From: Minisyncoccia bacterium
Lineage (GTDB): Bacteria > Patescibacteriota > Minisyncoccia > SW-4-49-11
NCBI GenBank assembly: GCA_044356725.1
Contig: JBIKVS010000004.1
Span: 28,494-92,493 of the forward strand
Direction of reading: 5' to 3'
DNA length: 64,000 bases
Shown: positions 8,967-59,197 of the stretch, one piece after another
Numbering within the stretch: position 1 is the first letter of the stretch
How the letters are laid out: each line of letters opens with the position of its first letter
Translations under genes and position numbers: made by a program
The notes under the pieces: generated by a model
The model's database searches: none
What the model was told of the DNA's origin: nothing
What the model saw: the letters and a program-made list of their open reading frames with translations, nothing else

Positions 8967-8976
8967 CTTTAAAATA

Positions 8977-9066
8977 TAGACAAAAGTTTCAAAATATGGT
9001 ATGTTTCTGATTGTACGGACTCTAGAGCAATTTAGAGTCAAATTTTCTCTACCCTGAGGAGGGGTT
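8977..9066 (+). promoter_or_regulatory. Cassette promoter and 5' leader, copy 1: TAGACA, 17-bp spacer, TATGTT, then a ~55-nt leader with a conserved hairpin and a GAGGAGG ribosome-binding site.
   Basis: About 90% identical to 9657-9747. A related core (TAGACAAAAGT…AAATATG.TAT.GT) appears at 15642. Confidence 0.55.
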
Positions 9067-9516
9067 ATGTCTAACTCTCAATCGGATATAGATCCATTTG
9101 AAGAAGCACAATTTTTCATTCCCAACTCATCATACTTTAGTAGATTGTATTGTTTGGATTATATACTTACAAAACTTGATAGGGAACATAGAAGAATGGC
9201 TTTAAATATTTCTGATGACTCTAAACTTGCATTTGAAGGTGCTAATATACAACCTCCTGAGTATATTTATATTAAATTCATTGAAGAGTGGGAGTTAAGT
9301 GATAGTGATGTCCTGCACTTTGATTATCAGAGAAGAGGAGGAATTATCCCCAAATGGGGTCCTGGTGAAAAGTCGAAAGAATCACTTTTGCACATTGGGG
9401 CAATTATAAGGTTAAATCTTTTATATCAAATTAGAATGATAGGGCCAATAGATCCTAGCCCAAATGACTGTGAGTGGAGAAGAGTAGGAAAGATTGAAGT
9501 GGTAAAGCAAAGTTAA
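9067..9516 (+). CDS. Hypothetical protein, cassette ORF 1 (149 aa); no family recognised.
   Basis: ORF with a strong ribosome-binding site (gaggagg, 5 nt, ATG), enclosed by the shared promoter/leader and the shared terminator. Confidence 0.55.
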   Translation: MSNSQSDIDPFEEAQFFIPNSSYFSRLYCLDYILTKLDREHRRMALNISDDSKLAFEGANIQPPEYIYIKFIEEWELSDSDVLHFDYQRRGGIIPKWGPGEKSKESLLHIGAIIRLNLLYQIRMIGPIDPSPNDCEWRRVGKIEVVKQS

Positions 9517-9531
9517 TAAGTGTTTTCATTT

Positions 9532-9557
9532 CCCCCGCGTGCGATGCGGGGGTTTTT
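9532..9557 (+). terminator. Cassette terminator, copy 1 (cccccgcgtgcgatgcggggg + TTTTT).
   Basis: Perfect 9-bp GC stem with a T-run. It is identical to the element at 10122-10147, including the downstream 'attttcgactatttat'. Confidence 0.8.
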
Positions 9558-9656
9558 ATTTTCGACTATTTATTCACTCTCTCCACCACTTCCTAAACTT
9601 AAAGTATAGGAGGAACTTAAAGCCCTACGACAAGAATAGATTATCTCTTCGCAATA

Positions 9657-9747
9657 TTGACAAAAGTTTCAAAATATGATATGTTTCTGTTTGTCCAGGC
9701 TCTAAAGTAATTTAGAGTCAAATTTTCTCTACCCTGAGGAGGGTTTT
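9657..9747 (+). promoter_or_regulatory. Cassette promoter and 5' leader, copy 2 (TTGACA, 17-bp spacer, TATGTT, conserved leader, GAGGAGG ribosome-binding site).
   Basis: Near-identical to 8977-9066. Confidence 0.55.
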
Positions 9748-10110
9748 ATGTTGAATGTTCATTCGGCTGCATCAGCTGCAGAATTTTTTGTAGTAGATAG
9801 AATAACTGGGAAAGCTAGAATATATGACTTATCTTGTAAAGAGACTAAGGAAACAAGAATATTTTGGCTTCAAACTAGTCCTCTGAAAACAGAGTATATA
9901 GTTCTATTTTGCGATGTAACTTTAGACAATGGCAGAACAATTTCAGGTGGTGGTGAAATATCTATTATAAAAGAAGAGTTTGATAAACTCGAAATTAATG
10001 ATAATGTAGAAATAGGATTTGAGATACGTCAGAATTTCGGAGAACCTAGGAAATTATACCCACTTACATTAAAGTTTATAGATAGAGAAGGAGCTCTCGA
10101 TCTTTCTTGA
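9748..10110 (+). CDS. Hypothetical protein, cassette ORF 2 (120 aa); unrelated in sequence to ORF 1.
   Basis: Same arrangement as cassette 1 (promoter-leader, ORF, terminator), but with a different ORF. Confidence 0.55.
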   Translation: MLNVHSAASAAEFFVVDRITGKARIYDLSCKETKETRIFWLQTSPLKTEYIVLFCDVTLDNGRTISGGGEISIIKEEFDKLEINDNVEIGFEIRQNFGEPRKLYPLTLKFIDREGALDLS

Positions 10111-10121
10111 TTACCCCCCCC

Positions 10122-10147
10122 CCCCCGCGTGCGATGCGGGGGTTTTT
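10122..10147 (+). terminator. Cassette terminator, copy 2.
   Basis: Same hairpin and T-run as 9532-9557, preceded by a C-homopolymer. Confidence 0.8.
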
Positions 10148-10212
10148 ATTTTCGACTATTTATCTATAATTTGGTATAATAAATATACTTCAAATTAAGA
10201 AAATATACTGTT

Positions 10213-12768
10213 ATGCCCTCGCCGATGATGACTCAGTTTTATGAAATCAAAAAATCTTATCCGAATGATATTTTGTTTTTCCGCCTTGGGGACTTTTATG
10301 AAATGTTTGCAGAGGATGCGAAGTTAGCAGCTCCAATACTGGATTTAGTGCTAACAGCAAGAAAGAATACAGTAGATGGTAGTATTCCAATGTGTGGGGT
10401 ACCTTATCATTCATCTACTCAATATATTCAAAAACTAATCAAAGCTGGACATTCCGTAGCTTTATGCGAACAACAAGGATCAGCTCAAGATACTAAAGGT
10501 TTAGTCACTAGAAAGGTGGTAAAAGTCATTACTCCGGGGACAGCCTTATTTGAGACTGAGACAAGTGAATCAAGATATATAGCTAGTATTTATAAACAGA
10601 AAGATATTATATATATCGCTTTTGCTGACTTAGGGACTGGAATTTTTGAAGTGGGGGAATTTAGTTCTCAAGAATTAAAAGATATTTTAAGTTCAAGACA
10701 AGTCAAAGAAATTATATTGCCACAAAATAGTGATTTGAGTGAAGAATTAAAAGATTTGGGTATAAAATTAAGTATAGAGTCAAAGTGGAACTTTCAATTA
10801 GAGCGGTCTATTGAGACTTTGACTAAACATTTTGGAGTTACTAGTATGTCCGGATTCGGTTTTGAAATTGATGATTTACGGTTAGCCCCAGCAGGAGCTT
10901 TACTTAATTATCTTATTTATACTCAACAAGAGGATTTGAAGCATATTACAAAATTGCAAAGCATGAAGTTATCTCGATATATGCGATTAGATGCCCAAAC
11001 CATTCAAAATTTAGAGTTGTTTTATCTATCAAGAGCTAGTCAAAAGGGAAAAAGTTTTTATCAAGCTATTAATTATACTAGAAATCCTCTGGGATCTAGA
11101 ATGTTGAAAAACTGGATATTAGCTCCATTATTAGATATTAAGTCAATTCAAACTCGTCAGAATCATATACAAAATTATATTCAAAACCCTAGTAAAATTG
11201 ACCAAATTAGAGATTTATTAGCTCAAATTGCTGATATTGAGAGACTATTAGCTAGACTTTCTAGTAATGTCGGCGGACCTAGAGATATGTTATTATTATC
11301 CAAAAGTTTTGAATATATTATTAAAGTTTTAGAGATTGATAATGAGGATTATATAAAGTCTGCTATAAAGGCTTTGAGTCAATTAAACCCTCTACAACAA
11401 GAATTGCAAAAAGCTCTACAAGAAAATGTTCCAATATTAGCTCGGGATGGTGGATTCGTGGCCAAAGGTTATAGAGCAGAAATTGATGAGTTACTAGATT
11501 TAAGTCAAGGAGGTAAGGAGTGGCTACTAGAATTACAAACCAAAGAACAAGCGAGAACCGGGATTAATTCTCTTAAAGTTAAGTATAATAAGGTCTTTGG
11601 ATATTATATAGAAATTAGCAATGCTCATAAGAATCAGGTTTTACCAGACAATTATATCAAAAAGCAAACTTTAGCTAATGCAGAGCGATATATTACTCCT
11701 GAATTAAAAGAATTTGAGGAAAAGATATTAAGTTCAGAGTCTCAACTATTAAATTTAGAACAAATAGTTTTTGAAGAATTAAGACAAGCTATTATAGCCG
11801 AGGCGGAACAAATTTATACTATTGCTGAGACTTTAGCCTATATTGATTGTATACAAGCTGGGGCCAAATTAGCCCTAGATTGGAATTATATAAAGCCTAT
11901 AATTACTAAAAAATCTAAATTATATATAGAGGCCGGCCGACATCCAGTTTTGGAGCAGTTAATTACAGATTATATACCTAATAATTGTAAACTCACCGAA
12001 CCAAATCACTCTCTAATGTTAATTACAGGTCCTAATATGGGAGGTAAATCTACTTATATTAGGCAAGTAGCTTTGATTGTGCTTCTAGCTCAAATTGGAT
12101 ACTATGTCCCAGCTATTGAGGCTGAGATTGGAATAGTGGATAGAATTTTTACTCGAGTAGGAGCTTCGGATAATATGAGTGAGGGACAAAGTACTTTTAT
12201 GGTGGAAATGCTTGAAGTTGCAAATATTTTGCATAATGCTACCAAATCTAGTTTGGTTATTTTAGATGAAGTCGGTAGAGGCACTTCTACTTATGATGGG
12301 ATGAGTATAGCCAAGGCTTTGATTGAATATATTCATAATACAATTGGAGCTAGAACTCTATTTGCGACTCATTATCACGAATTATTAAATTTGGAAGCAG
12401 AATTAGAGGGAGTGGTGAATTATCAGGTTTTAATTCAAGACTCTGAGGATGATATTATTTTCCTACATCGTATTGAACAAGGTGGAGCTGATAAAAGCTA
12501 TGGAATTGCCATTGCTAAATTAGCAGGATTTCCAATAGATGTGCTAGAATTAGCTAAAGGAGCACTTATTCAATATGAACAAAAAAAGTCTCAATTATCT
12601 TTTTTACCAACAAATAATCTAAAATCGCCTCAAGATCCAGCAATAAACCCAAAAATTGAGAAATACAATAATTTATTACAAAATCTGCACTCTTATAATT
12701 TGAATAATTTAACTCCGATGCAGGCATTATCTATATTAGATGACTTACAAAAGAATAATCCACTATGA
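10213..12768 (+). CDS. mutS: DNA mismatch repair protein MutS.
   Basis: N-terminal mismatch-binding region MTQFYEIKKSYPNDILFFRLGDFYEMF, Walker A GPNMGGKST, and ATPase region STFMVEMLE…DEVGRGTSTYDG; 851 aa. Confidence 0.95.
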   Translation: MPSPMMTQFYEIKKSYPNDILFFRLGDFYEMFAEDAKLAAPILDLVLTARKNTVDGSIPMCGVPYHSSTQYIQKLIKAGHSVALCEQQGSAQDTKGLVTRKVVKVITPGTALFETETSESRYIASIYKQKDIIYIAFADLGTGIFEVGEFSSQELKDILSSRQVKEIILPQNSDLSEELKDLGIKLSIESKWNFQLERSIETLTKHFGVTSMSGFGFEIDDLRLAPAGALLNYLIYTQQEDLKHITKLQSMKLSRYMRLDAQTIQNLELFYLSRASQKGKSFYQAINYTRNPLGSRMLKNWILAPLLDIKSIQTRQNHIQNYIQNPSKIDQIRDLLAQIADIERLLARLSSNVGGPRDMLLLSKSFEYIIKVLEIDNEDYIKSAIKALSQLNPLQQELQKALQENVPILARDGGFVAKGYRAEIDELLDLSQGGKEWLLELQTKEQARTGINSLKVKYNKVFGYYIEISNAHKNQVLPDNYIKKQTLANAERYITPELKEFEEKILSSESQLLNLEQIVFEELRQAIIAEAEQIYTIAETLAYIDCIQAGAKLALDWNYIKPIITKKSKLYIEAGRHPVLEQLITDYIPNNCKLTEPNHSLMLITGPNMGGKSTYIRQVALIVLLAQIGYYVPAIEAEIGIVDRIFTRVGASDNMSEGQSTFMVEMLEVANILHNATKSSLVILDEVGRGTSTYDGMSIAKALIEYIHNTIGARTLFATHYHELLNLEAELEGVVNYQVLIQDSEDDIIFLHRIEQGGADKSYGIAIAKLAGFPIDVLELAKGALIQYEQKKSQLSFLPTNNLKSPQDPAINPKIEKYNNLLQNLHSYNLNNLTPMQALSILDDLQKNNPL

Positions 12769-15486: not shown

Positions 15487-15641
15487 TTAGTGAATTGAAT
15501 TAAAATTCCCCTCTCTTCCTACGGTTTACCTACCGCAGGCAGGGAGATAAATTGAGGGGTGCCCATAGGGCAAGGTGGAAAAACCAGGCGACTGAAAGGT
15601 CGCCCCTACGAGAACTATGAACTAAAATGAGGAATATATTA

Positions 15642-29518: not shown

Positions 29519-29585
29519 TGTCCTCCTTTCTACCTACGGCAGATAAATGGAGGAGGTGGCACGAAGTGCCGGTGGTGGATAGATT
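29519..29585. repeat. Family C intergenic repeat module (cctcctttc…aggaggtggcacgaagtgccggtggtggat).
   Basis: Near-identical copy at 32158-32205; related copies at 1221-1268 and 8780-8825. Contains the tight hairpin ggcac-gaa-gtgcc. Confidence 0.8.
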
Positions 29586-29620
29586 TTAATACTGTAAGTA
29601 ATTAAATAAATTATTGAGGT

Positions 29621-31066
29621 CTAATTATTAAAGTTAATTAAAGGAGTTCTTATAGGAAATTGGAAGTATTGAACCTTATTCTCAATATCACTAATTAGAG
29701 TTCTAGCATCATTGTTAATTCTAATTGAAATAAAGTTTTGAGTATTGTCTAATAAGGTATAACTATTAATATTACCACGAGTATCTGATTCTACTACTTT
29801 CAGAGTATTATTTTCTACAAACATTATATATTCAGAGTTAGGCTCCCAGAATTCAGATTTAGTGATAGCTTCTTTAGAAGTATATAAAGTATCAAAATCT
29901 CCCTCAATTCTCGACTTATACCCTTCAATCGTATCAAGATATAGTTTAGAAATGGCATTTTCACCCTTTAGAAGGGCTTTTTTTGAATCTAGGCTAAATT
30001 GTATATCTTTTATCTCAAGTTCTGAAATTTTGTTAAATTCTGGGGTTTTAGCTCCTAGAGATTTAAGCCAAGCTTGTTGTTTGTCATCGATTAGTATAAT
30101 ATGCCCTTGACTTGGGCTTACAAAAATTTTACTAATTTGGATTTCAGGCATATCTATGGAGGTATTTTGTTTGGTATCAATATTATATATGCGAACTAAG
30201 TTTTTAGAGATATCTTTTGTAGAGGTATAATAAATATTATTATTTACAAATTTATATTGTTCCATATCTCCCACTAATGGCTCTGATATAGTACTAAACT
30301 GTTGTTTGACTTCATATAATGAACCTGCTTGTGTGAAGAATAGTCTATCTGTATCTAGACTTACAATTTTGACGGGGTTTGCAATTGTATCGGCTACAGG
30401 AATAAGATTAGTAATATTGAATATTATAGGGTTGGTATCTACATTAATAATAACAAAATATTGAAAAATATTATTAATAGAGGTTTTAAAGCTAAGAGTG
30501 GTACCAGTAGCATCCCAAATAAAATCAGAGTAATCTTGATTATCTAGACCACCTAAAGCCACGCTATCGGTAATTCTTTTACGAAGTTTGGTGTCTAAAT
30601 CTAATATCCAAAGACCAGACTCTTGAGGGATATAAGAGGTATAAAGTAGAGAAGAGGGGTTAGGGAGTCTACTAATATTACGAGCTACTGATAAATCTGT
30701 AAATTTATCTAAATTAGGTTTTTCTGGAAATAGAGTTACTTCACTTATCAATTGAACTAAAGAAGGTTTGATAGATATTTTTTTAGCCCATGGTTGATAT
30801 CCCTTTGAAGATAATACTACATCTAAATCTTGTGGAGCTAAACCTACCTTTAGAAGAGGGCTTTTTGACTCAAACTTGTCATTAATTGCAATCTCATAAG
30901 CTATTCTAGTATTAATTCTAATCCCTCCAGTACTAGTCAAAATTGCACCATCACCGCTATCTTTGCTTAGACGATACCCCATACTATATAGGACAATAGC
31001 AGGAGCTATGATAAAGAATAAGAAGATAAGTGTCCAAGCGAAGATTTTTTGTATAGTTCTATTCAT
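29621..31066 (-). CDS. Hypothetical protein with an N-terminal signal anchor; probably exported or membrane-anchored.
   Basis: 481-aa ORF. N-terminal TM IFAWTLIFLFFIIAPAIVLYSMGY. No recognisable catalytic motifs. Confidence 0.45.
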   Translation of the reverse strand: MNRTIQKIFAWTLIFLFFIIAPAIVLYSMGYRLSKDSGDGAILTSTGGIRINTRIAYEIAINDKFESKSPLLKVGLAPQDLDVVLSSKGYQPWAKKISIKPSLVQLISEVTLFPEKPNLDKFTDLSVARNISRLPNPSSLLYTSYIPQESGLWILDLDTKLRKRITDSVALGGLDNQDYSDFIWDATGTTLSFKTSINNIFQYFVIINVDTNPIIFNITNLIPVADTIANPVKIVSLDTDRLFFTQAGSLYEVKQQFSTISEPLVGDMEQYKFVNNNIYYTSTKDISKNLVRIYNIDTKQNTSIDMPEIQISKIFVSPSQGHIILIDDKQQAWLKSLGAKTPEFNKISELEIKDIQFSLDSKKALLKGENAISKLYLDTIEGYKSRIEGDFDTLYTSKEAITKSEFWEPNSEYIMFVENNTLKVVESDTRGNINSYTLLDNTQNFISIRINNDARTLISDIENKVQYFQFPIRTPLINFNN

Positions 31067-31489: not shown

Positions 31490-31669
31490 ATAAAATATAG
31501 ATTAAAATTATTATATCATATATTTTATATTTGTGTATAGTAGTGGGGGGATTAATTATAAATTGTGAATGGTGAATTATGCTTCGACAAGCTCAGCAAA
31601 CTCAATTTACTCTCGCTTGAGAGGGTCACTATAAAATATAATTATAAATTTAAATATTTTTTATAAATG

Positions 31670-31742
31670 TGGGTGCAGGTGGGCTCGAACCACCGACCAA
31701 AGGCTTAAAAGGCCTCTGCTCTACCAACTGAGCTATGCACCC
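31670..31742 (-). tRNA. tRNA-Lys (anticodon TTT).
   Basis: The reverse complement is gggtgcatagctcagttggtagagcagaggccttttaagcctttggtcggtggttcgagcccacctgcaccca, with anticodon loop cTTTTaa. Confidence 0.85.
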
Positions 31743-31811
31743 TTAAAAACTTAATACCAACATAGTATACACAAAATAAAATATTTTGCAACTATTATTG
31801 ATACTTTTATG

Positions 31812-31896
31812 TGGGCAGAGTAGGACTCGCACCTACGTAGCCTGAAAAGGCGTCGGTTTTACAGACCGATGCGTTTGACTGCTCCGCCATCTGCCC
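31812..31896 (-). tRNA. tRNA-Tyr (anticodon GTA), class II with a long variable arm.
   Basis: Reverse-complement fold: acceptor gggcaga/tctgccc, anticodon stem tcggt/accga with loop ctGTAaa, T-arm gtagg-tgcgagt-cctac. Confidence 0.75.
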
Positions 31897-31929
31897 AAAT
31901 GTACATACATTATACCATAGAAATATCTA

Positions 31930-32005
31930 TGGAGCCGAAAAGAGGACTTGAACCCCCGACCTACCGCTTACAAGGCGGTTGCTCTACCAGCTGAGCTATT
32001 TCGGC
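31930..32005 (-). tRNA. tRNA-Thr (anticodon TGT), with CCA encoded.
   Basis: The reverse complement is gccgaaatagctcagctggtagagcaaccgccttgtaagcggtaggtcgggggttcaagtcctcttttcggctcca, with anticodon loop cTTGTaa. Confidence 0.85.
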
Positions 32006-32157
32006 TATGGGTAATATAACTTTATAATGCACTCTATCAAATATATCACAATTTTAAATTTTTGTCTATTGTTTGTACTAGATGAGATGATCGTAGACAA
32101 ATTGCAAAATAAAAAGTTAAAGAATGGAAGGAACATATAAAGTATTATATAATTCAC

Positions 32158-32205
32158 TGTCCTCCTTTGGAGGAGGTGGCACGAAGTGCCGGTGGTGGAT
32201 TGAGT
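32158..32205. repeat. Family C repeat module. Family D ('gggtactccctccaaagggagaca', 32385-32404) follows in the same intergenic region.
   Basis: Matches 29519-29585 (C) and 57075-57116 / 59156-59197 (D). Confidence 0.8.
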
Positions 32206-32451
32206 TTAATATTATTATAAACAAGTGTTTATTTTAGTATTCCAAAGTATATCCACTCTCCCCCGTCGCAAATGGCATTTGCTCCTGGGAAACCTCACAG
32301 GTTTGACCAACCTTCCTCCACGGGAAAACTACCGTTTTCCCGACCCCTTTCCCAAAGGCCAAAGCCTTTTTTACGGGTACTCCCTCCAAAGGGAGACACA
32401 ATAAATTTCAACCTTAAAGTAATGTCTGTGATATTTCTCATCTTTTTCATA

Positions 32452-34362
32452 TTAGGTAGAAGTAGATGATGGAGTGGTCTCAGGAGTGGGAGTGTCGAGT
32501 TTATAATCATCTTTCATCTCCTCCCATAATGCCTTGACAAAAGATAAGTCTGGTTGCCTTAGAGTACTTAAATCTAATAGTCCAAAATGTAAATGTTCTT
32601 TTGCTGTTTCTAGGTTAATCCCAGATACTAATATAAGATTTTGAAGTTCAGGGTGTCTTAAGATCTCTTCTACTACTGCTTTTTGTTCAAGATAGGCAGT
32701 ATCTTTGGTAGAAGGAATAGACCGGTCTGTATTATTAAAGTTTATTGAGTTACGGAATAATCTTCTAGCACTACTAAGAGCTGTTTTAAGAGCTAATGAT
32801 TTTGACTTTTTTGGATTAACAGATATAGTACTTTCATAATAAGCCTTTACACAATCTAAATAATCTCCACCAGCTTGTTTTGCTGCCATAGCTCTAATAT
32901 AGTGTGGTACCGGAGGACTAGCGAATCCAAATAATTCTTGAGATGCTTTATCTTGATAATACATTGCTCCGCCTTCTTGAAATAAAACAGATCTATCACC
33001 TCCAATTTGGTCGGGATGAGTATAGAGAGGTAGTCCTATTTCCGCTGTATTTTCATCTTGTAAAACATGGACTATTTCATGTACTGTACCCTTAGTTAGG
33101 ACATCTATAATAGACCTATTTTTAATTGGTATAAATATAGTTTTACTTTTAGGGTGGGTTTCAAACACAGATTGGTTGGGCTTTATATAACATCTCCATT
33201 TATTGTCAGGAGGTTTAATATTATTATCTATTTGCTCTTGATCAGAAGGATGTTCACTTAATAATCCATACTCTGATAAAATTCTATCTAAATATATTTT
33301 TATTTGCTCGGGCTCAACACTTTCGAACTCCATTTTATTTATATCTAATCCTTGTTCTGCTAAAATTGAGGCTTTTTCTTGGTTTAATTTAATATGTTCT
33401 TCAGCTATTTCATCAGCTTGTTGGAATAGTCTATCATCGACTTGGTCATAATTTCCATCTGCATTCATTTTGCCAACTCCATATCTAAATTTATCTAATT
33501 TATACTTTGATTTGTGAGATTTTAAATCTGATTCAGCATCTAAAATAGCTTTATCTTCTAACGTTACAGCTAATAATACATTCACTTTTTTAATTATATG
33601 TTTGAGGCTATATAATTTTGAATGGATTAGAGCTAGACTTTCTGTTGAAGACTCCTGCTCCCCATTTGTAACAGCCGCTTCTTCTTGGAATAGGGTTGAC
33701 CTTGATTGTTCGAGTCTTGACCTTAGTTCTCTTAAGAATTCAATTTTTTTAATTAACTCGTCAGGTTTTTTGATAAACATTAATTTCTCGGGATTATCCA
33801 AACCTTCCACATCTAAACTACCACTCTCAGTGATGTGAGGTGATAATTGCTCTAACATTGTTTTGGTAAAATAATTAAGACTTTTTTTACCTAACAAACT
33901 TAAGGATTTAGAATCTAGTTTTCTTAAAACATCAATATTTTCTCTAATATCTATTGCAAAATTACTATTCTTAGAATCTTCGTCTGAAGATAATCTATCT
34001 AAAATAACTTTAGTTTTATCGGTAGAATTATCTAATAAATAAGCTGATAATATGGATTCTTGTAATACATTTTGTCCCTCAACGGTATCGAAATATTCAG
34101 GATACAATGTTTTTACATTATACTCTATTGAATATGCTTGAGCTAATTCATTTACAAAGGGGTTTGTAAATTCTATTAAACTATTTTTTTCATCTTCTGT
34201 TAATACTTCTTTTTCCCTTTCTCCAGACAAATACTTTAGAATTTCGTTTAAAAGTTTCTCTGCAGAGTAGGAAGGCCTTTCTGGATATAAGGATCTTCTT
34301 TCAGCAGTATTTTCTAAAGGTTTTGGTGTAGTTTCAAAAGACATATTAGTTTTTAGATTCAA
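32452..34362 (-). CDS. DUF1704/QEGLA-motif (bacterial MATCAP-like) HExxH zincin protein with a long N-terminal extension.
   Basis: 636 aa. HEIVH zinc-binding motif followed by FQEGGAMYYQDK (a QEGLA-like motif) in the C-terminal half. The family is known to co-occur with RimK-like ATP-grasp ligases. Confidence 0.55.
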   Translation of the reverse strand: MNLKTNMSFETTPKPLENTAERRSLYPERPSYSAEKLLNEILKYLSGEREKEVLTEDEKNSLIEFTNPFVNELAQAYSIEYNVKTLYPEYFDTVEGQNVLQESILSAYLLDNSTDKTKVILDRLSSDEDSKNSNFAIDIRENIDVLRKLDSKSLSLLGKKSLNYFTKTMLEQLSPHITESGSLDVEGLDNPEKLMFIKKPDELIKKIEFLRELRSRLEQSRSTLFQEEAAVTNGEQESSTESLALIHSKLYSLKHIIKKVNVLLAVTLEDKAILDAESDLKSHKSKYKLDKFRYGVGKMNADGNYDQVDDRLFQQADEIAEEHIKLNQEKASILAEQGLDINKMEFESVEPEQIKIYLDRILSEYGLLSEHPSDQEQIDNNIKPPDNKWRCYIKPNQSVFETHPKSKTIFIPIKNRSIIDVLTKGTVHEIVHVLQDENTAEIGLPLYTHPDQIGGDRSVLFQEGGAMYYQDKASQELFGFASPPVPHYIRAMAAKQAGGDYLDCVKAYYESTISVNPKKSKSLALKTALSSARRLFRNSINFNNTDRSIPSTKDTAYLEQKAVVEEILRHPELQNLILVSGINLETAKEHLHFGLLDLSTLRQPDLSFVKALWEEMKDDYKLDTPTPETTPSSTST

Positions 34363-35206
34363 TTTCTTGTATTATATATTTAGTGATAACTTCAAATAAA
34401 TTAATACCAGTAGTTGCCATAAATCCTTTAAATTGAGGAGCAGCATTTACCTCCATAATATAGTATTTTTTAGTTTCTATATCCTGAATTATATCCACTC
34501 CTGCCATATCTAAATCTAGAATTGCCACTGATTTTATAGCCATATTTAACGCTTCATCAGGGAGAGTGGCTATTTCTGAAGTCCCACCAAGGGATATATT
34601 AGATCTAAACTCACCTTCTTCAGTAGGGCTTCTCTTGATTACCCCAATTACTTTGTTTTTTAATATCCAAACTCTATAGTCACCATCATTTGGAATCATA
34701 GGTTGAGTTATTAGAGGAATTTCAGATTTTTGTACGGTATCCAAGATTGATTCTATAGATGAATGTTTCAGTATCTCCCTCCCTTTTTTCCCATTGATAG
34801 GCTTTGTTATAAACGATTGCTTATATTGAGATGTGAAATACCTTATTTTATCTACACTTTTTGATATGAGTGATGGTATTATAGATATGTTATTATTGCT
34901 TAAATTATATATTTCAAAGGTTTTAGAATCAATATAATTTGGCTTATGTCCATAAAATATAAATGGAATATTATTATTAATAAGATATTGCTTTAAGATA
35001 GGGCTGATATGCTTGTGTTTTTCTGTTAATCCTACAAGTACAAATTTAAAATCTTCAAGTAGTTTATCATCTATAAGTATCTTATTATTCAATAAAGCTA
35101 CTTCAGTAAACTTAATATGGTGAAACGTATATCCATTATACTCAACAAGCTTTTTAAATTCTATCTGAAATGACTCTGGAAAGTTAATAAATAAAATATT
35201 TCTCAT
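34346..35206 (-). CDS. RimK-like ATP-grasp peptide ligase, paralog A.
   Basis: ATP-grasp motifs ITKPINGKKGREI, DYRVWILKNKVIGVIKR, FRSNISLGGTSE and GVDIIQDIETKKYYIMEVNAAPQFKGF. Confidence 0.75.
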   Translation of the reverse strand: MRNILFINFPESFQIEFKKLVEYNGYTFHHIKFTEVALLNNKILIDDKLLEDFKFVLVGLTEKHKHISPILKQYLINNNIPFIFYGHKPNYIDSKTFEIYNLSNNNISIIPSLISKSVDKIRYFTSQYKQSFITKPINGKKGREILKHSSIESILDTVQKSEIPLITQPMIPNDGDYRVWILKNKVIGVIKRSPTEEGEFRSNISLGGTSEIATLPDEALNMAIKSVAILDLDMAGVDIIQDIETKKYYIMEVNAAPQFKGFMATTGINLFEVITKYIIQEIESKN

Positions 35207-35210
35207 ACAC

Positions 35211-36068
35211 CTACTCTTTAGTTGATATTAAATACTCCAGTAATAAATCTTCAACTTTAATATTAAATGTTTTATTAAAACCATAGAACTGAGGGTTTGC
35301 ATTTATTTCAATAACATAAGGTTTATTATCAGAATCAAATAAGATATCTATTCCTGCATATTCTAAAGATAATGTATTAGCTACATCTAGAGCTAGGATT
35401 TCTATTTCAGGGGATAGTGTAAATTTTTCACCAATACCTCCTTGAGATATGTTGGTGACAATAGAATCTTTATGAGGTTTATTTCTTTTCATAGCTCCAA
35501 TAACTTTTTTCCCAATTATTAAAACTCTAATATCCCATTCAATTGGAATATACTTTTGAAATAATATATTGTATGGTTTGTAAGTTTTATAATATTCATC
35601 TAATTTTGATTGAGAATCTATAATTTGAATCCCATTACCAAAGGAACCAGAGCTAGGCTTGACTAAAAATCTATTATCTTGAAAGTAGTTACAAATATCT
35701 TTATAGTTTAAAATATCAAATGACCATATAGTAGGGATTAAAGGTATGCTCGGATTGTTTTGAGATAAATATGAGTACTGTATAGTTTTATCATACTTAT
35801 GAAATTTTAATAAAAATTCTTTATTTAATTGTTTGGTTGAAGATGGTAGTTGATTAACATAAAAACTTTGTACTGGAGAACAATCAAAGTCTCTATGAAT
35901 TGCAAAATCTATATTATTTAGGCTTTTTTTAATATTATGAAGTTCATGTACAATTTCCTTAGTATGAATTACTTCTATATTAATATAACATTTTTGAGCA
36001 GCTTCTATGAGTTTGCTAATTGTGTTTTTATCAGAGTTATGACGGGTAGTAAATAATATTGTTTTCAT
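35211..36068 (-). CDS. RimK-like ATP-grasp peptide ligase, paralog B.
   Basis: FLVKPSSGSFGNGIQII, WDIRVLIIGKKVIGAMKR, NISQGGIGEKF and GIDILFDSDNKPYVIEINANPQFYGF. The start is set at the internal MKTILF (this parallels paralog A's MRNILF); the ORF-track start is 36107. Confidence 0.7.
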   Translation of the reverse strand: MKTILFTTRHNSDKNTISKLIEAAQKCYINIEVIHTKEIVHELHNIKKSLNNIDFAIHRDFDCSPVQSFYVNQLPSSTKQLNKEFLLKFHKYDKTIQYSYLSQNNPSIPLIPTIWSFDILNYKDICNYFQDNRFLVKPSSGSFGNGIQIIDSQSKLDEYYKTYKPYNILFQKYIPIEWDIRVLIIGKKVIGAMKRNKPHKDSIVTNISQGGIGEKFTLSPEIEILALDVANTLSLEYAGIDILFDSDNKPYVIEINANPQFYGFNKTFNIKVEDLLLEYLISTKE

Positions 36069-36141
36069 ATTAAGATAAAAGTATATAGACAGGGTTATTA
36101 CTATCAAGTATAATAATTATTATAACATATAATGTATTTTT

Positions 36142-37110
36142 ATGAAATTAGGTATTTTTTTGACCCCAATTGTTGAAGAGGCAGAGAATAGAGGTATAAG
36201 TATAAAACTATTCCCAGAGATAAGTAAAACTTTTGCTATTTTACAATATGGTAAGCATGAGGAATATATTCATAATACTTTAACAAATCATATAGGAGCT
36301 TCTACAACCAGGATATTAAAAAACAAGTATTTTCAATCAGTACTATTATCTGAAAAAGGATATATTACTCCCAAGACTCAAATAGTATATTTAGAGAAGT
36401 CCAAGAGAGATGAATTTATCCAAAACTTTAATCAATTTCCCTGCGTGGTTAAGCCATTAGATAACTATGGGGGTAGAGGAATTACGGTAAATATTACAAA
36501 TCATACTGATTTAGAAAAAGCAATTGAACTTGCTTGTGATAATAGTAAAAAGTATAAAGATAAATGTATAGTACAAGAAATGGTGAGTGGTAAAGAGGAG
36601 TATAGATTATTAGTGATTGGGAATAAAGAGGTGTTTTTTGTAAAAAGAACTCCATTTAGAGTTATTGGAGATGGTCAACATTCAATTCAGGAATTGATTC
36701 AAATATATAATGATGATGTTGTAAAGATTGATAAGACGAGATATGTCCGTATAGGAGACAGTATAATAAACATATTAAAAGAACAATCTTTAACATTAGA
36801 TTATATACCTAAAGAGCAGGAAATAATACAATTAAGTTATAAAGCTAACTCACATGATGGTGGTTCATCTGAAGAAATGACTGACTTTTTGCCAGATGTA
36901 TTAAAGCAGTTTGCTATTCAATTGTCTTTAGATTTTAATTTACCAATTGTAGGCATTGATATTATAACTAATGATATTAATAATCCTAATCAATGTATTT
37001 TAGAGTTAAATCTTACTCCAGGCTTAAATATACATGTAGCTCCAACCTTTGGAAAGCCAACTAAGCCTCAAAAAGCTATTATTGATCTATTGTTCCCAGA
37101 AACCATTTAA
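36142..37110 (+). CDS. ATP-grasp peptide ligase, paralog C (cyanophycin-synthetase N-terminal-like / RimK-like).
   Basis: CVVKPLDNYGGRGITVNI, EYRLLVIGNKEVFFVKRTPFRVIGDGQHSIQELI and IVGIDIITNDINNPNQCILELNLTPGL. Confidence 0.7.
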   Translation: MKLGIFLTPIVEEAENRGISIKLFPEISKTFAILQYGKHEEYIHNTLTNHIGASTTRILKNKYFQSVLLSEKGYITPKTQIVYLEKSKRDEFIQNFNQFPCVVKPLDNYGGRGITVNITNHTDLEKAIELACDNSKKYKDKCIVQEMVSGKEEYRLLVIGNKEVFFVKRTPFRVIGDGQHSIQELIQIYNDDVVKIDKTRYVRIGDSIINILKEQSLTLDYIPKEQEIIQLSYKANSHDGGSSEEMTDFLPDVLKQFAIQLSLDFNLPIVGIDIITNDINNPNQCILELNLTPGLNIHVAPTFGKPTKPQKAIIDLLFPETI

Positions 37111-37126
37111 GTTATTACCAATAAAT

Positions 37127-38560
37127 TTAACTTTCTTTTCTTGGGTCTATAATAAATTTTTTAAGGTCATTTTTCCCTAATAAAAATTGATATTTAAGAT
37201 GTGATCTTCTAACTATAGAGCAAGTAATATTAGTTACTTCATCGCCAACTTTGACTGGTATTTTAACAAATGGCCTGACTGTATAACCATTTCCTGCTTT
37301 AATTATAGCTACTTTTCTCAGTAAATGAAATTCAGGTTTTTCTTTTAATTCTAAGTTTATTTTATCGGTTAACTTATTTAGTGCATTATATTTTATCTCC
37401 TCTGGTATATCTAAAGCCCTAAATTCTTTTAACACATCTCCATAACCAAGTTTAATCAAAAGATCCTCATCGATACTGGAGGAGTCTGCCCCTGTATCTA
37501 CCTTAGCCAGTATTGTCTCTTTTTGATTATCTTTGCCAAAGAGGGTAATCTCTTCAATTAAGCCTATCACTTGTCGTCCGGTGATTTCCTCAATTTCTTC
37601 TTCAATTTCTCCTCCGAATAGGTCTTTTGCTAGTCTGATGGCTCTCTTGATTGTCTTAACTTTAAGCCCTTTGACCTTTTGTAATCTTTCTTTGAGTGGG
37701 GCTAAATTGGCAATTTGAATAGCAAGTCCTGGTCGGGCATTGGCTTCCAAGACTACTGGTCCAGCATCGCGGTCTATGGCAATATCTACTCCTGTAAATC
37801 CTAAATTAGTCACATCAGCAGTACGAATAGCTATTTCTAAAATTGTATTCCAATAGGGTATTCTAATTCCAGCTAAATTGGTTTTGGTACCTGGTATGGT
37901 GTCTATGAACTTCTCTCGCATAATAGCATTGGTAGTAACTCCAGTGGCCATATCTATCCCAACACCAATTCCTCCTTGATGTAGATTAGCTTTGCCATCG
38001 GATTCTTTGGTCGGAATTCTAATCATTGCCATTACGGGAATACGATTGAATACAATTACCCGAATATCAGGTATCCCTTTATAGGCTAAATGTTTGAAGG
38101 ATTTATTTAGTTTAATTCGCTCTTCAAAAAAGGCTATATCAGGGCTATTGGTACGGGAATATGTCCCGTCAAGAATATTGCTAATATGATTATGTATCAT
38201 TGTCTCACTAAGTTTAACTCCTTTGGTTTTGACCCATTGTCTTTCTCCATCGGCAGTTTTCTTTTTATGTTCTCCAAAAATCACGACAATTCCTTCCCCT
38301 CCAAATCCAGAAGTAGGCTTCAACACAAAGCTTTTTGGTAATTTAGTATAGTCAAAGTTATTTAGCTTTTCATAAGACCTTACGGAGGCTATGAGTTTAG
38401 GAGTAGGTATATTATTTTGTTGTAAAACTTTTTTGAATTTGATTTTATTGTCTACTAATTTGACCCATTTACGGTAGTTATAGGGCTTGATATAAGAAAG
38501 GTTGCGGGCATTCATCCCGAGTATTTTTTGACTAAATACGAATGCTTCCAGCCAATTCAT
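37127..38560 (-). CDS. Alpha-L-glutamate-ligase-like ATP-grasp enzyme fused to a C-terminal retropepsin-like (DTGA) aspartic peptidase domain.
   Basis: N-terminal ILGMNARNLSYIKPYN… then VLKPTSGFGGEGIVVIFG, IRVIVFNRIPVMAMIRIP, NLHQGGIGVGID and GVDIAIDRDAGPVVLEANARPGL. C-terminal KVDTGADSSSID. Confidence 0.7.
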   Translation of the reverse strand: MNWLEAFVFSQKILGMNARNLSYIKPYNYRKWVKLVDNKIKFKKVLQQNNIPTPKLIASVRSYEKLNNFDYTKLPKSFVLKPTSGFGGEGIVVIFGEHKKKTADGERQWVKTKGVKLSETMIHNHISNILDGTYSRTNSPDIAFFEERIKLNKSFKHLAYKGIPDIRVIVFNRIPVMAMIRIPTKESDGKANLHQGGIGVGIDMATGVTTNAIMREKFIDTIPGTKTNLAGIRIPYWNTILEIAIRTADVTNLGFTGVDIAIDRDAGPVVLEANARPGLAIQIANLAPLKERLQKVKGLKVKTIKRAIRLAKDLFGGEIEEEIEEITGRQVIGLIEEITLFGKDNQKETILAKVDTGADSSSIDEDLLIKLGYGDVLKEFRALDIPEEIKYNALNKLTDKINLELKEKPEFHLLRKVAIIKAGNGYTVRPFVKIPVKVGDEVTNITCSIVRRSHLKYQFLLGKNDLKKFIIDPRKES

Positions 38561-38563
38561 AGC

Positions 38564-39205
38564 TTATTGATTGCTAATAATCTTACGGAAACGAATGTAT
38601 TCAGAAATTCTAAGTCCTTCATATCTACCAAGGAATATAATTCCGGCAAATACCACTAAAATTATCCATGGATTATAGAATACTAAATCTCGAAGTTGGG
38701 TGGTGGTCATTATGAGATTTCCAATTGAGGATAATACTAAAGTTTCTACGGATAAAATTACAGCTGTACGATAACCTTTTTCCATCTGAGCATTGATAAA
38801 CTTCTCTACTAAGGTGATAATTATCAAAATTTGGTAAATCGAGGCTTGGACGAATATGGTGCTATCTGAGAATATACCCCAAATAAGACTAAAGAACATA
38901 GATAATGCTGTAATAGATAAGATTAAGGCCATCTTAGGTAAATATAATATTCTAATTTTCCTCAATAAAAATCTCACTACAGAAGCTACTACAAGGGAGA
39001 CAACAAAAATACTAACTCCATACTTAAAACCAATTTCAGTCAAAGCAAAAGTTATAATTAGTGGAGTATAAATACCAAAAGCTTTAATTCCAACCACTTG
39101 TCTAGCAGCCACAATAAAACCAGCCATAATTGGAAACATTAACAAAATGTCTATGGTTTCCCGTGGCACATCATTTCTTAGTAGGTAATCAAAGAATATA
39201 TCCAT
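38564..39205 (-). CDS. Multi-pass membrane protein, possibly the 7TM module that accompanies RimK-like/QEGLA systems. It has no transglutaminase domain.
   Basis: 213 aa with about six or seven hydrophobic helices. It lies immediately downstream of, and is co-oriented with, the ATP-grasp-peptidase fusion (4-bp gap). Confidence 0.45.
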   Translation of the reverse strand: MDIFFDYLLRNDVPRETIDILLMFPIMAGFIVAARQVVGIKAFGIYTPLIITFALTEIGFKYGVSIFVVSLVVASVVRFLLRKIRILYLPKMALILSITALSMFFSLIWGIFSDSTIFVQASIYQILIIITLVEKFINAQMEKGYRTAVILSVETLVLSSIGNLIMTTTQLRDLVFYNPWIILVVFAGIIFLGRYEGLRISEYIRFRKIISNQ

Positions 39206-39270: not shown

Positions 39271-40668
39271 TTGACTAGTAGCAAATTTATGGACAGATCA
39301 GTATACGATAATTATAGCTTACATAAGGGAAAATTTCAAACTAAACCTGGATTAACTCGAGAAGTAATTGTAGAAATATCTAAACAAAAAAACGAGCCTA
39401 CTTGGATGTTGGAGAAGAGACTAAAAGCTTTTGAATTATATCAAAAAACTCTTTTACCAAATTGGGGACCTAGTTTAGATGGTCTGGATTTGGATAAAAT
39501 TATTTATTTTAGCCGTCCAGATGCGGTGGAGTCTAAGACTTGGGAGGATGTGCCACAGGATATTCGGGATACTTTTGACAAATTAGGTATTCCAGAGGCT
39601 GAAAAACAGGCTCTAGGAGGTGTTGGAGCTCAATATGACTCAGATATGGTGTATCATAATTTAAAGCAGGACCTCAAGGACAAAGGAGTGATTTTTGAGA
39701 ATATGGATACGGCTTTGCAGGAATATCCAGATTTAGTGAAGAAATATTTTATGACTCAATGTATTCCTATCAATGACCATAAATTTATTATGCTGCATGC
39801 CTCGGTTTGGAGTGGAGGGACTTTTATTTATGTGCCAAAAGGAGTGAAAGTAGAGCTGCCGCTACAGGCTTACTTTAGAATGAATATGGAGGCGGGAGGA
39901 CAGTTTGAGCATACTTTAATAATTGCGGATGAGGGTTCAGAGCTGACATATATTGAAGGTTGTTCCGCCCCTAGATGGAATGCTTCAGCCTTGCATGCAG
40001 GTGGAGTTGAGATTTTTGTCCATCGAGGGGCTCAAGTTAAGTATATTAGTATAGAGAATTGGAGTAAAAATACCTATAATCTAAATACCAAAAGAGCTCT
40101 AGTAGATGCTTATGGTACAATTGAATGGTTAAATGGTAATATGGGTAGTGGTGTTACTATGTTATATCCTTGTAGTATATTAAGGGGAGAATATGCTCGC
40201 TCAGATAGCCTCGGGATAGCCTTTGCTGGCGAGGGTCAAGAGCAAGATACTGGCTCTAAGGTTATTCATGTAGCTCCAAACACAAAATCTACCATTAGCG
40301 CGAAGAGTATTTCTCAAGATAATGGAATATCTTCATATAGGGGGCTTGTTAAAATTTTACCCAAAGCAGTGGGGAGTGAATCTCATATTGTCTGCGATGC
40401 TCTTCTTATGAATGATGGAGCCAAGTCCGATACCTATCCTGTGATGCAGGTGGAAACTAGCGATGCTCAAATTGGACATGAGGCTAGAGTGGGAAAAGTC
40501 GGGGAGGAAGAAGTTTTTTATTTAATGAGTAGGGGGATGACCGAGTCAGAGGCTCGTAAAATGATAGTTAATGGTTTTATAGAACCAGTTGTAAAGGCTT
40601 TGCCTCTGGAATATGCAATTGAACTTAATCGTTTAATCGAAATTGAAATTACTGATTCAGCTACTTAA
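39271..40668 (+). CDS. sufB: Fe-S cluster assembly protein SufB.
   Basis: GGTFIYVPKGVKVELPLQAYFRMN…; 465 aa. Confidence 0.9.
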   Translation: MTSSKFMDRSVYDNYSLHKGKFQTKPGLTREVIVEISKQKNEPTWMLEKRLKAFELYQKTLLPNWGPSLDGLDLDKIIYFSRPDAVESKTWEDVPQDIRDTFDKLGIPEAEKQALGGVGAQYDSDMVYHNLKQDLKDKGVIFENMDTALQEYPDLVKKYFMTQCIPINDHKFIMLHASVWSGGTFIYVPKGVKVELPLQAYFRMNMEAGGQFEHTLIIADEGSELTYIEGCSAPRWNASALHAGGVEIFVHRGAQVKYISIENWSKNTYNLNTKRALVDAYGTIEWLNGNMGSGVTMLYPCSILRGEYARSDSLGIAFAGEGQEQDTGSKVIHVAPNTKSTISAKSISQDNGISSYRGLVKILPKAVGSESHIVCDALLMNDGAKSDTYPVMQVETSDAQIGHEARVGKVGEEEVFYLMSRGMTESEARKMIVNGFIEPVVKALPLEYAIELNRLIEIEITDSAT

Positions 40669-40671
40669 AAT

Positions 40672-41328
40672 ATGTCAATTTATACTACTACCACCCCCGC
40701 AGATGAAAAATATCTGGTTATAAAATCTAGAAACAAAGCAGTTTTAGATATTCTCGATTTATCACCCAATACAATTATCCATATTGCCGAACAGGCTCAA
40801 TTAGAATTAAGTATAGTAGCCGGAGAGTATAATCATAATCTTAATATTATTTTGACCAAAGGAGCTAAACTGAATATTATGGAGAAAGAAAACTGGAGTG
40901 GGAATTTACATTGGACTATAGATTTAATAGAACCATACTCAGAGGTCAAATATATAACCCGTCTGGAGGTAGAAAAAAATTCTAATAATTTTATTAAAAT
41001 CAATCATCAAGCTGCTTATACTCAATCTAAAGTCGATTCGAGATATTGTGTTATTAGTCAAAACAAAATTCAACAACATACTATTATAGATATACCCAAA
41101 AATATTAAATATTGCCAAGCTAGTCAATCGGCGGAAATTTTGTTATTAACTGACCGACCGCAAATCAAAATTATACCCGAGCTCAGAGTAGCCACTGATA
41201 ATAGTAATGCCAGTCACGGAGTGTCTATACATTCAATTCGAGAGACAGATATATTTTATCTAATGGCTCGAGGCATCAGCCAGGCAAAAGCAATCAAAAT
41301 TCTCAAAAAAGGCTTTTTGGAAGGGTAG
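40672..41328 (+). CDS. sufD: Short SufD-like Fe-S assembly protein.
   Basis: C-terminal HGVSIHSIRETDIFYLMARGISQAKAIKIL matches the SufBD fold. It lies directly downstream of sufB. Confidence 0.7.
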   Translation: MSIYTTTTPADEKYLVIKSRNKAVLDILDLSPNTIIHIAEQAQLELSIVAGEYNHNLNIILTKGAKLNIMEKENWSGNLHWTIDLIEPYSEVKYITRLEVEKNSNNFIKINHQAAYTQSKVDSRYCVISQNKIQQHTIIDIPKNIKYCQASQSAEILLLTDRPQIKIIPELRVATDNSNASHGVSIHSIRETDIFYLMARGISQAKAIKILKKGFLEG

Positions 41329-51603: not shown

Positions 51604-52155
51604 TTTGACCCCGTAGTGATGACTTTATATTTACTTGTGCTTTATAAACCTCTAAAGAATAGAATAAAATTAGAAAAAGTTGAATAAATTGAAAGGAGTC
51701 ACTCTTGAGAGACTCCAATGTAATGTTATTGCTCATTTTAATCTTCTAATTTAGCTATAATACAATAACACAATACTACTGCTATTAAATATATAATTAT
51801 ATAAAGCAAATTAGCAAAAAATTTTTCCCAATACCCAACAATCAGATGAACAAATATAGAAAAATAATTCCAGAAAAGACACAATACAAATATATAAGAA
51901 ACAACAGTGAGAATATATTTGCACAATTCTAGTAACTCAAATTTAAGATTAGGCACGGAAAGTCTCCGTATAGTACAATAGACTTATATCATATTTTAAT
52001 ACTTTTGTCTATATTTAAATTCCAGGCGACTGAGAGGTCGCCCCTACGAAAGTCTAAGTGTAAGGTTTGAAGTTCCTTATAATGGCTTGTATAAAAGCGA
52101 TATATAAGATGAATATCTCGATTTACTGGGTATTGAGTTTATATAGTTATTAACA

Positions 52156-57074: not shown

Positions 57075-57116
57075 GTCCACCCTCCCCCTTTGGGGACTCC
57101 CTCCAAAGGGAGACAT
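57075..57116. repeat. Family D repeat module (gtccaccctccccctttggggactccctccaaagggagaca).
   Basis: Matches 59156-59197 and, in part, 32385-32404. Confidence 0.8.
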
Positions 57117-59155: not shown

Positions 59156-59197
59156 GTCCACCCTCCCCCTACGGGTACTCCCTCCGAAGGGAGACAG
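59156..59197. repeat. Family D repeat module (gtccaccctccccctacgggtactccctccgaagggagaca).
   Basis: Paired with 57075-57116. Confidence 0.8.

Follow-up and report, generated by a model that had tools for sequence, protein, structure and literature searches.

We analysed a stretch of 64,000 nucleotides (nt) from a Minisyncoccia bacterium (Patescibacteriota; GenBank assembly GCA_044356725.1, contig JBIKVS010000004.1, positions 28,494 to 92,493 of the forward strand), referred to here as the window, with a focus on a cluster of six genes at 32452–39205 that encodes ATP-grasp ligases, peptidases and a membrane protein. An earlier sequence-only reading had proposed that this cluster builds and trims peptide tails or polyamino acids. 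An open reading frame (ORF) check of the window found all six ORFs at 32452–39205, and the motifs which that reading had quoted, the three tRNAs and the flanking suf genes were likewise where it had placed them. In order, the cluster encodes a seven-transmembrane (7TM) protein (38564–39205, minus strand, 213 amino acids), a fusion of a ligase with a retropepsin (37127–38560, minus strand, 477 amino acids), an ATP-grasp ligase resembling the G domain of CphA (36142–37110, plus strand, 322 amino acids), two paralogous RimK-like ligases, RimK1 (35211–36107, minus strand, 298 amino acids) and RimK2 (34346–35206, minus strand, 286 amino acids), and a MATCAP/DUF1704-like peptidase (32452–34362, minus strand, 636 amino acids). 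The CphA-like ligase gene is the sole plus-strand gene, and the intergenic gaps within the cluster measure 3–34 bp. The genes for tRNA-Lys, tRNA-Tyr and tRNA-Thr (31669–32005, minus strand) lie on one flank and those for SufB and SufD (39271–41328, plus strand) on the other. The closest relatives were found in Paceibacteria/Parcubacteria metagenome genomes. The domain assignments made earlier for the six proteins held up in searches with profile hidden Markov models (HMMs) and, for the 636-amino-acid protein, in hhalign and Foldseek comparisons.

The 477-amino-acid fusion combines an N-terminal RloC-like ATP-grasp domain (amino acids 11–300, nt 37661–38530, minus strand) with a C-terminal RimB/RloA-type retropepsin domain (amino acids ~328–473, nt 37142–37579, minus strand). 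The ligase part matched PF14397 (E = 1.3e-71, 241.5 bits against a cut-off of 31.4) and TIGR02291 (E = 8.2e-87, 291.1 bits against a curated cut-off of 314.2), contains the previously noted ILGMNARN in its translation, and carries an E-x-N Mg/ATP motif at amino acids 272–274; this motif is intact in all four ligases of the cluster. The retropepsin part matched PF05618 (E = 2e-8, 34.7 bits, cut-off 27) and the RloA3 model NF052264 (E = 2.9e-7, 30.4 bits, cut-off 210). Its catalytic DTGA motif (nt 37487–37498, minus strand, amino acid 355) lies within KVDTGA (nt 37487–37504), and residues K353, R429 and R452 align with the polyglutamate-binding residues K46, R114 and R137 of RloA, with the spacing verified on a Legionella homologue. 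Neither a signal peptide nor a transmembrane segment was found in the fusion, and the same was true of every other soluble protein of the cluster.

Homologues of the fusion numbered approximately 7,500 matches at E <= 1e-10, and the named sources among the matches listed were mostly Patescibacteria. RimBK is a separate ligase–retropepsin fusion that has the reversed domain order and a RimK-type ligase; the reversed order and the different ligase subfamily therefore indicate that a ligase and a retropepsin have been joined at least twice. This repeated joining is strong evidence that the two activities act on one and the same chain, and the independent fusion argues for tight functional coupling of the retropepsin and the ligase.

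The 213-amino-acid protein matched PF14402 (E = 6.8e-24, residues 18–209 against profile positions 56–247 of 248) and the RloB model NF052267 (E = 4.5e-20, 71.8 bits against a cut-off of 900), and contains six to seven hydrophobic segments. RloB measures ~508 amino acids, and the match was limited to positions 311–506 of the 508 in its model; therefore the protein lacks the transglutaminase domain, in agreement with its earlier description as a stand-alone 7TM protein. Its gene immediately precedes that of the fusion in 21 related loci.

RimK1 and RimK2, which are 36% identical over 197 amino acids, both matched PF08443 (RimK; E = 1.3e-26 and 1.9e-26, respectively) and scored 139 and 112.6 bits with TIGR00768, for which the cut-off is 143.4. 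RimK1 carries an E-I-N motif. Both proteins scored far under every characterised equivalog, including the RpsF-ligase equivalog PRK10446 (57–68 bits against a cut-off of 331). The 322-amino-acid ligase matched the cyanophycin synthetase model TIGR02068 over positions 158–473 of 862 (E = 1.8e-57), at 195 bits against a cut-off of 850, and it also matched the C-terminal ATP-grasp domains of both GshAB (2e-45) and N-acetylglutaminylglutamine synthetase (4e-42). It has an E-L-N motif at amino acids 288–290, the motif RVIGDGQHSIQELI is present in its translation, and it contains neither the N domain nor the MurE-like M domain. In distant relatives, the gene for the CphA-like ligase is co-directional with the other genes of the cluster. 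Weak matches to the TTL family were also seen on the cluster ligases, as were weak matches to MvdC/MvdD-type maturases (E = 4e-6 to 5e-3, far below cut-off). Judged by their HMM matches, the four ligases belong to related amidoligase families rather than to unrelated ATP-grasp families, and are neither D-Ala-D-Ala ligases nor biotin carboxylases.

The 636-amino-acid protein had been assigned to DUF1704, the family of the tubulin detyrosinase MATCAP, on the basis of its HEIVH (33067–33081, minus strand) and FQEGGA (32965–32982, minus strand) motifs. This assignment stood as one of remote homology and failed the HMM check suggested along with it, as searches of Pfam at E <= 10, NCBIfam and TIGR02421 gave zero matches. 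Similarly, a search of the Protein Data Bank (PDB) with phmmer and with two family profiles gave no sequence match, and from Pfam the family consensus sequences retrieved no more than weak, generic matches to zincins. An exhaustive HMMER search nevertheless defined a family of 465 clusters at 50% identity, 221 of which scored below 1e-30; most of the matches listed measure 590–650 amino acids. Residues H428, E429, H432 and E463 were invariant in 44 of 44 diverse members, and in the family the zinc-binding motif takes the form HExxH in 81 members and HExxxH in 59, with an E-x-G-A motif 30-odd residues downstream. Weak matches to PF08014 appeared in two of the 44 members (best E = 0.003, 17 bits against 27) and a match to the TIGR02421 'QEGLA' model in one of them (E = 7.3e-5).

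Two lines of evidence tied this family to DUF1704. In an hhalign comparison with 34 Patescibacteria PF08014 proteins, the family profile aligned over 356 columns (99.5%, E = 5.1e-23), covering residues 187–599 of the 636-amino-acid protein and pairing HEI(x)H with HEIGTH, EGGA with EEGVA, RLFR with RTFRG, and KDTxYLEQ with KDIIYREG. The structure prediction that the sequence-only reading had called for produced an AlphaFold2 model with a pLDDT of 81.6 and a pTM of 0.79, for which MATCAP was the sole credible Foldseek match, pointing to a MATCAP-like fold. MATCAP/TMCP enzymes are carboxypeptidases of the gluzincin type, which use HExxxH and the Glu of an 'EEG' motif and take Tyr and Glu off C-termini (PMC10499314). 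On these alignments and the predicted fold, we consider the 636-amino-acid protein to be a true but remote DUF1704/MATCAP homologue of the gluzincin type, and its relatives to be a longer, divergent sister family that current HMMs overlook.

Patescibacteria also own a separate DUF1704/PF08014 family of ~455 amino acids, which carries the NCBI name 'tyrosine/phenylalanine carboxypeptidase domain-containing protein'. Among the related loci, which we designate by L numbers, genes of this shorter family lie within the 7TM–fusion cluster in L039 and elsewhere in L042 and L043. In L039, a 451-amino-acid true PF08014 member (E = 2.6e-14) fills the same operon slot as the long peptidase. In the closest relative (L015, 80% identity), the MATCAP-like gene at 10001–11933 consists of two overlapping ORFs of 336 and 313 amino acids, representing either a frameshift or pseudogene or else an assembly error, and the CphA-like ligase is absent.

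The prediction that these genes would be clustered in relatives was borne out. In close relatives (53–80% identity) the cluster is kept between sufBD and rnhA/ribosomal-protein genes (suf...rnhA...rpsI), and in distant relatives (26–33% identity) the genes for the 7TM protein, the fusion, one or more ligases and the MATCAP-like peptidase share a single strand and are flanked by ruvC and the gene for a class A penicillin-binding protein (PBP). Among 28 non-redundant loci that were informative, the MATCAP-like gene was a neighbour of the 7TM and fusion genes in 21, in two chromosomal contexts. The slot between the fusion and the peptidase holds zero to three ligases of differing subfamily, being empty in L014. 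It may contain a CphA-like ligase alone or with a GNAT protein (L004, L035), one or two RimK-like or GSH-S/YheCD-like ligases, or a 451-amino-acid ATP-grasp_3 protein, and the window, with its three extra ligases, stands at the rich end of this range. In two loci of fusion homologues, L039 (with the short DUF1704 protein) and L040 (with no peptidase), a ligase is accompanied by a GT4 glycosyltransferase, to which L040 adds a GNAT protein. The 7TM protein and the fusion thus form the firm core of the system, and the peptidase and the extra ligases are frequent yet optional.

The class A PBP gene was directly downstream in 13 non-redundant Moranbacteria-type loci, even with differing upstream context. 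In loci of this type (L004/L028, L006, L024, L027, L029, L031, L033–L036 and L039–L041), the 7TM–fusion cluster lies between ruvC and the class A PBP gene, which is followed by ruvA, and so interrupts the usual ruv gene group; in L041, the PBP1A gene is still directly downstream though the upstream gene differs. Several loci (L020, L022–L024, L027, L030 and L034; GC content 37–49%) come from genomes labelled Micavibrio or 'uncultured Bdellovibrionales', but one of them, L023, shares its gene order with the Moraniibacteriota loci L017 and L021. These labels may be wrong, and the presence of the cluster in predatory bacteria is putative.

The cluster had also been described as sitting in an accessory island, which our analysis contradicted. 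Its context is conserved down to ~53% identity, its GC content (0.26–0.36) is like that of its surroundings (window mean 0.33) with no shift in composition, and no integrase or other mobility gene was found at the cluster. We therefore rejected an accessory or genomic island, given the conserved flanks at 53–80% identity, the ordinary GC content and the missing integrase. The tRNA trio is simply part of the local gene order in close relatives. Four relatives have it at the same position, and four more lack it while retaining the cluster.

Nor are the 'repeat modules' reported beside the tRNAs part of the cluster; they are GC-rich palindromes dispersed throughout the genome. Repeat families such as TGGAGGAGGTGGCACGAAGTGCCGGTGGTGGAT and CTCCCTCCAAAGGGAGACA are short GC-rich palindromes scattered across the intergenic regions of this 33%-GC window, at 29548–29591, 32130–32211, 32358–32398, 8791–8834, 1242–1294, 57075–57115, 59156–59196, 299–329, 15579–15611 and 52017–52049. 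They look like repetitive extragenic palindromic (REP) elements or miniature inverted-repeat transposable elements (MITEs), and they enlarge the 447-nt spacer beside the tRNAs (32006–32451), which measures 83 nt in L001. An Rfam search of this GC-rich spacer returned only tRNAs, and the repeats had no Rfam match. Elsewhere in the window, 487–894 is a direct tandem duplication of 204 nt (99% identical) inside an ORF region. At 8962–10163, two small neighbouring genes (9067–9516 and 9748–10110) have duplicated upstream modules and identical 42-nt ends consisting of a hairpin and a T-run (9532–9573 and 10122–10163). A 481-amino-acid ORF at 29621–31066 (minus strand), which carries a hydrophobic segment in its N-terminal part and matched no Pfam family, adjoins the RNase H gene in relatives too (485 amino acids in L001 and 482 in L007).

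The mechanical ORF starts of the 636-amino-acid and 298-amino-acid genes are TTG codons, and both probably lie too far upstream (affected stretches 34344–34362 and 36068–36107). For the 636-amino-acid gene the true start is probably the ATG at 34344, because relatives begin with 'MSIET'; this ATG falls just beyond the RimK2 stop codon, and the apparent overlap of the two genes disappears. RimK1 probably starts at the ATG at 36068, giving 285 amino acids, because its relatives measure 281–285 amino acids. In a promoter and terminator scan, sites were no more numerous than expected by chance, and the best ones lay upstream of the three transcription units.

Two related systems described in 2025 provide the framework in which we interpreted the cluster. 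In the rloABC system of Pseudomonas aeruginosa, RloA is a secreted retropepsin that cuts stretches of eight or more Glu; loss of all three RloA proteases (rloA1-3) is harmful only when RloB and RloC are present, deletion of rloB or rloC suppresses the defect, and Rlo mutants show osmotic phenotypes (Lormand et al. 2025, PMC12239564). In the second system, RimK makes poly-alpha-L-glutamate and glutamylates RpsF, while the retropepsin RimB cleaves Glu runs and is required for efficient synthesis of free polyglutamate by RimK; a RimB–RimK hybrid, RimBK, also exists (Little et al. 2025, PMC11957791). In Shewanella, vesicle production changes when an RloB-type gene, encoding an inactive transglutaminase joined to a 7TM module, is knocked out. 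The sequence-only reading had called a three-gene version of the system biochemically uncharacterised, a statement that these genetic and partly biochemical studies of rloABC and RimB/RimK overtake (PMC12239564, PMC11957791). It had also named a QEGLA protein as the third gene, in disagreement with the two canonical proteobacterial rloABC loci that we checked, from Legionella (L037) and Aeromonas (L038), where a retropepsin occupies that place.

The idea of a tailing-and-trimming or polyamino-acid system remains the best, if tentative, reading. In the specific form that we find somewhat more convincing than not, the cluster is a Patescibacteria version of the Rlo/Rim ligase–peptidase systems, cytoplasmic and docked at the membrane, which builds acidic peptides non-ribosomally and edits their length. 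The product would most likely be short acidic chains, alpha-linked and rich in glutamate. According to this model, the RloC-like domain of the fusion would extend a carboxylate primer through repeated, ATP-driven addition of L-Glu or a similar residue. The fused retropepsin, acting as a dimer, would cut long Glu runs and so release or limit the chain, and this cutting would sustain turnover of the ligase, in the way that RimB sustains RimK. The 7TM protein would anchor the enzyme at the membrane and present or pass the product towards the envelope, and the extra ligases (one CphA-G-domain-like and two RimK-like) would add other residues or prime the chain. Ligase number and type vary by lineage, and therefore the product probably varies too. 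Finally, the MATCAP-like zinc peptidase would trim residues singly from the C-terminus, resetting or recycling the chain.

Our own analysis contributed to this model the domain identities, the catalytic motifs, the linkage by fusion and operon, the conservation of the core over ~20 loci, and the MATCAP homology. By analogy, homologues contributed polyglutamate synthesis by RimK and RimB, cleavage by RloA and RimB, suppression through rloB and rloC, and removal of Tyr and Glu by the MATCAP family. Which amino acids are used, what serves as the primer, what the 7TM protein does and what purpose the system has in the cell (envelope or osmotic homeostasis) are points that we only infer. That purpose is probably related to the envelope, because of the PBP1A adjacency in one clade, the GT4 and GNAT proteins in the slot, and the phenotypes of homologues.

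Several observations weigh against this model. The MATCAP-like gene is unlinked in 7 of the 28 loci, two short DUF1704 genes sit apart from the 7TM–fusion cluster, and many loci with the 7TM protein and the fusion have no MATCAP-like peptidase. The adjacency of PBP1A is limited to one clade, is absent from that of the window, and may be inherited synteny. Furthermore, the 7TM protein has no counterpart of the external domain of RloB, and its single-sequence AlphaFold2 model was poor (pLDDT 59, pTM 0.31). The retropepsin is cytoplasmic here and secreted in Pseudomonas, so that the topology of the pathway differs, and for RloC-type ligases the predicted product would rest on analogy. No ORF of the window has an acidic C-terminus, and the window yielded no candidate for a primer or a substrate.

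The main alternative is a protein tailing cycle, comparable to RimK–RpsF or the tubulin code, in which the ligases would extend a specific protein at its C-terminus by Glu or other residues, and the retropepsin and the MATCAP-like carboxypeptidase would take this tail off again, creating a reversible regulatory mark. Possible targets would be ribosomal protein S6, the 7TM protein of the cluster and an envelope enzyme. Two of the ligases are of the RimK family, RimK and RimB act on RpsF, MATCAP trims protein C-termini, and an endopeptidase and an exopeptidase are both present, to which the weak TTL-family matches can be added. However, the two RimK-like proteins scored far below the RpsF-ligase equivalog (57–68 against 331 bits), their genes are absent from many loci that retain the core, and none of the window gene products ends in an acidic tail. 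Membrane association and a variable slot with ligases, GT4 and GNAT proteins suit a polymer or envelope product better, and we regard the tailing cycle as unlikely. It is less likely still that the cluster makes a small peptide osmolyte, such as N-acetylglutaminylglutamine amide, N-acetyl-aspartyl-glutamate or a beta-citrylglutamate-like compound, as a di- or tripeptide that the peptidases would degrade when osmolarity drops. The match of the 322-amino-acid ligase to the ATP-grasp half of N-acetylglutaminylglutamine synthetase (E = 4e-42) would fit such a role, as would the osmotic phenotypes of Rlo mutants and the GNAT gene that follows the CphA-like ligase gene in L004 and L035, as in the fused Ngg enzyme. 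But the CphA-like ligase and the GNAT protein are optional in the cluster, no amidotransferase (AsnO) is present, and a retropepsin with polyglutamate-binding residues, whose homologues need at least eight Glu, is ill-suited to a dipeptide; we therefore hold this explanation to be distinctly improbable.

Similarity to cyanophycin synthetase, the weak MvdC/MvdD matches and the adjacent tRNA cluster could be taken to suggest a cyanophycin-like storage polymer, the maturation of a ribosomal peptide (graspetide), or an accessory or defence island that is mobile. The conserved synteny, ordinary GC content and missing integrase speak against this group, to which we give hardly any credence. Cyanophycin synthesis was rejected, as only the G domain of CphA is present (158–473 of 862) with no Mur-like M domain and no cyanophycinase. 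The maturation of a ribosomally synthesised and post-translationally modified peptide (RiPP), including graspetides, was rejected because the gaps of 3–34 bp leave no room for a precursor-peptide gene. A defence system was likewise set aside, PADLOC having given no match.

A bolder reading is that the cluster is a 'peptide-code' machine, in which the lineage-varying ligases would write a defined hetero-oligopeptide, going beyond polyglutamate, on a membrane-associated acceptor tied to cell-wall synthesis, and the endopeptidase and the MATCAP-type exopeptidase would erase it. Such a machine would parallel, among prokaryotes, the TTL/TTLL–MATCAP pair of writer and eraser in eukaryotes, might even be the evolutionary source of that pair, and would tune the envelope in these tiny, host-dependent Patescibacteria. 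We consider this proposal speculative and unlikely.

In pathogens, Rlo-type systems influence how cells tolerate osmotic change, what shape they take, how they form biofilms and how sensitive they are to beta-lactams. Here, one compact operon unites a ligase, an endopeptidase, a MATCAP-like exopeptidase and optional extra ligases, and because its soluble parts are all cytoplasmic, its chemistry should lend itself better to reconstitution than that of the Pseudomonas system. An unannotated family of ~465 sequence clusters is now defined as MATCAP homologues, and the lineage-varying ligase set suggests a variable product. That Patescibacteria with almost no biosynthetic capacity keep four ATP-consuming ligases suggests that this product matters for the envelope or for life with a host.

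Every domain family in the cluster was known already, as were the Rlo and Rim systems. Our literature search found no description of this system in Patescibacteria, nor of bacterial MATCAP homologues, and in the literature searched we found no description of what appears to be new here: the ligase–retropepsin fusion with a 7TM protein free of a transglutaminase domain, its regular association with the long, unannotated MATCAP-like family, and the variable ligase cassette.

In comparison with MATCAP/TMCP (KIAA0895L) and bacterial DUF1704 proteins (PF08014, TIGR02421), the 636-amino-acid family has in common the predicted fold and gluzincin site, the motifs RLFR/RTFRG and KDxxYxE, and the Glu of the E-G motif ~30 residues past HExx(x)H. 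The presence of ATP-grasp ligases in the same operon as this peptidase resembles the functional pairing of TTL/TTLL with MATCAP. The family differs from the ~455-amino-acid Patescibacteria DUF1704 proteins in being ~150–200 residues longer, chiefly through an N-terminal extension. The 636-amino-acid protein itself has HExxH rather than the HExxxH of MATCAP, scores below the Pfam and TIGRFAM thresholds, unlike DUF1704 proteins, and belongs to a host without tubulin. With CphA1, in which the G domain extends the peptide backbone at its C-terminus, the 322-amino-acid ligase shares an alignment to that domain. Unlike CphA1, it has neither the N nor the MurE-like M domain, and therefore it alone cannot make cyanophycin.

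The cluster resembles the RimK/RimB system in that an ATP-grasp ligase is paired or fused with a retropepsin in the cytoplasm, and it adds two RimK-family genes; rpsF is not in the window. However, the order here is ligase–retropepsin, in contrast to the retropepsin–ligase order of RimBK, and the fused ligase is RloC-like rather than RimK-type (291 bits with TIGR02291 against 53 bits with TIGR00768). RimK/RimB also has neither the membrane partner nor the metallopeptidase of the cluster. With rloABC, the cluster has in common a retropepsin of PF05618, a 7TM module of PF14402 and an ATP-grasp ligase of PF14397, which here scores just under the TIGR02291 cut-off, as well as the adjacency of the ligase and membrane genes, and the fused retropepsin retains the D-T-G-A motif and the polyglutamate-binding K, R and R of RloA. 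All NCBIfam Rlo scores of the cluster proteins nevertheless fell under their cut-offs, and the host is a monoderm-like Patescibacterium rather than a proteobacterium. The retropepsin, which in rloABC is a separate, secreted protein with a signal peptide, is fused here to the C-terminus of a cytoplasmic ligase; the 7TM protein is without the inactive transglutaminase domain of RloB; and the cluster, unlike rloABC, also includes a metallopeptidase resembling MATCAP along with as many as three further ligases.

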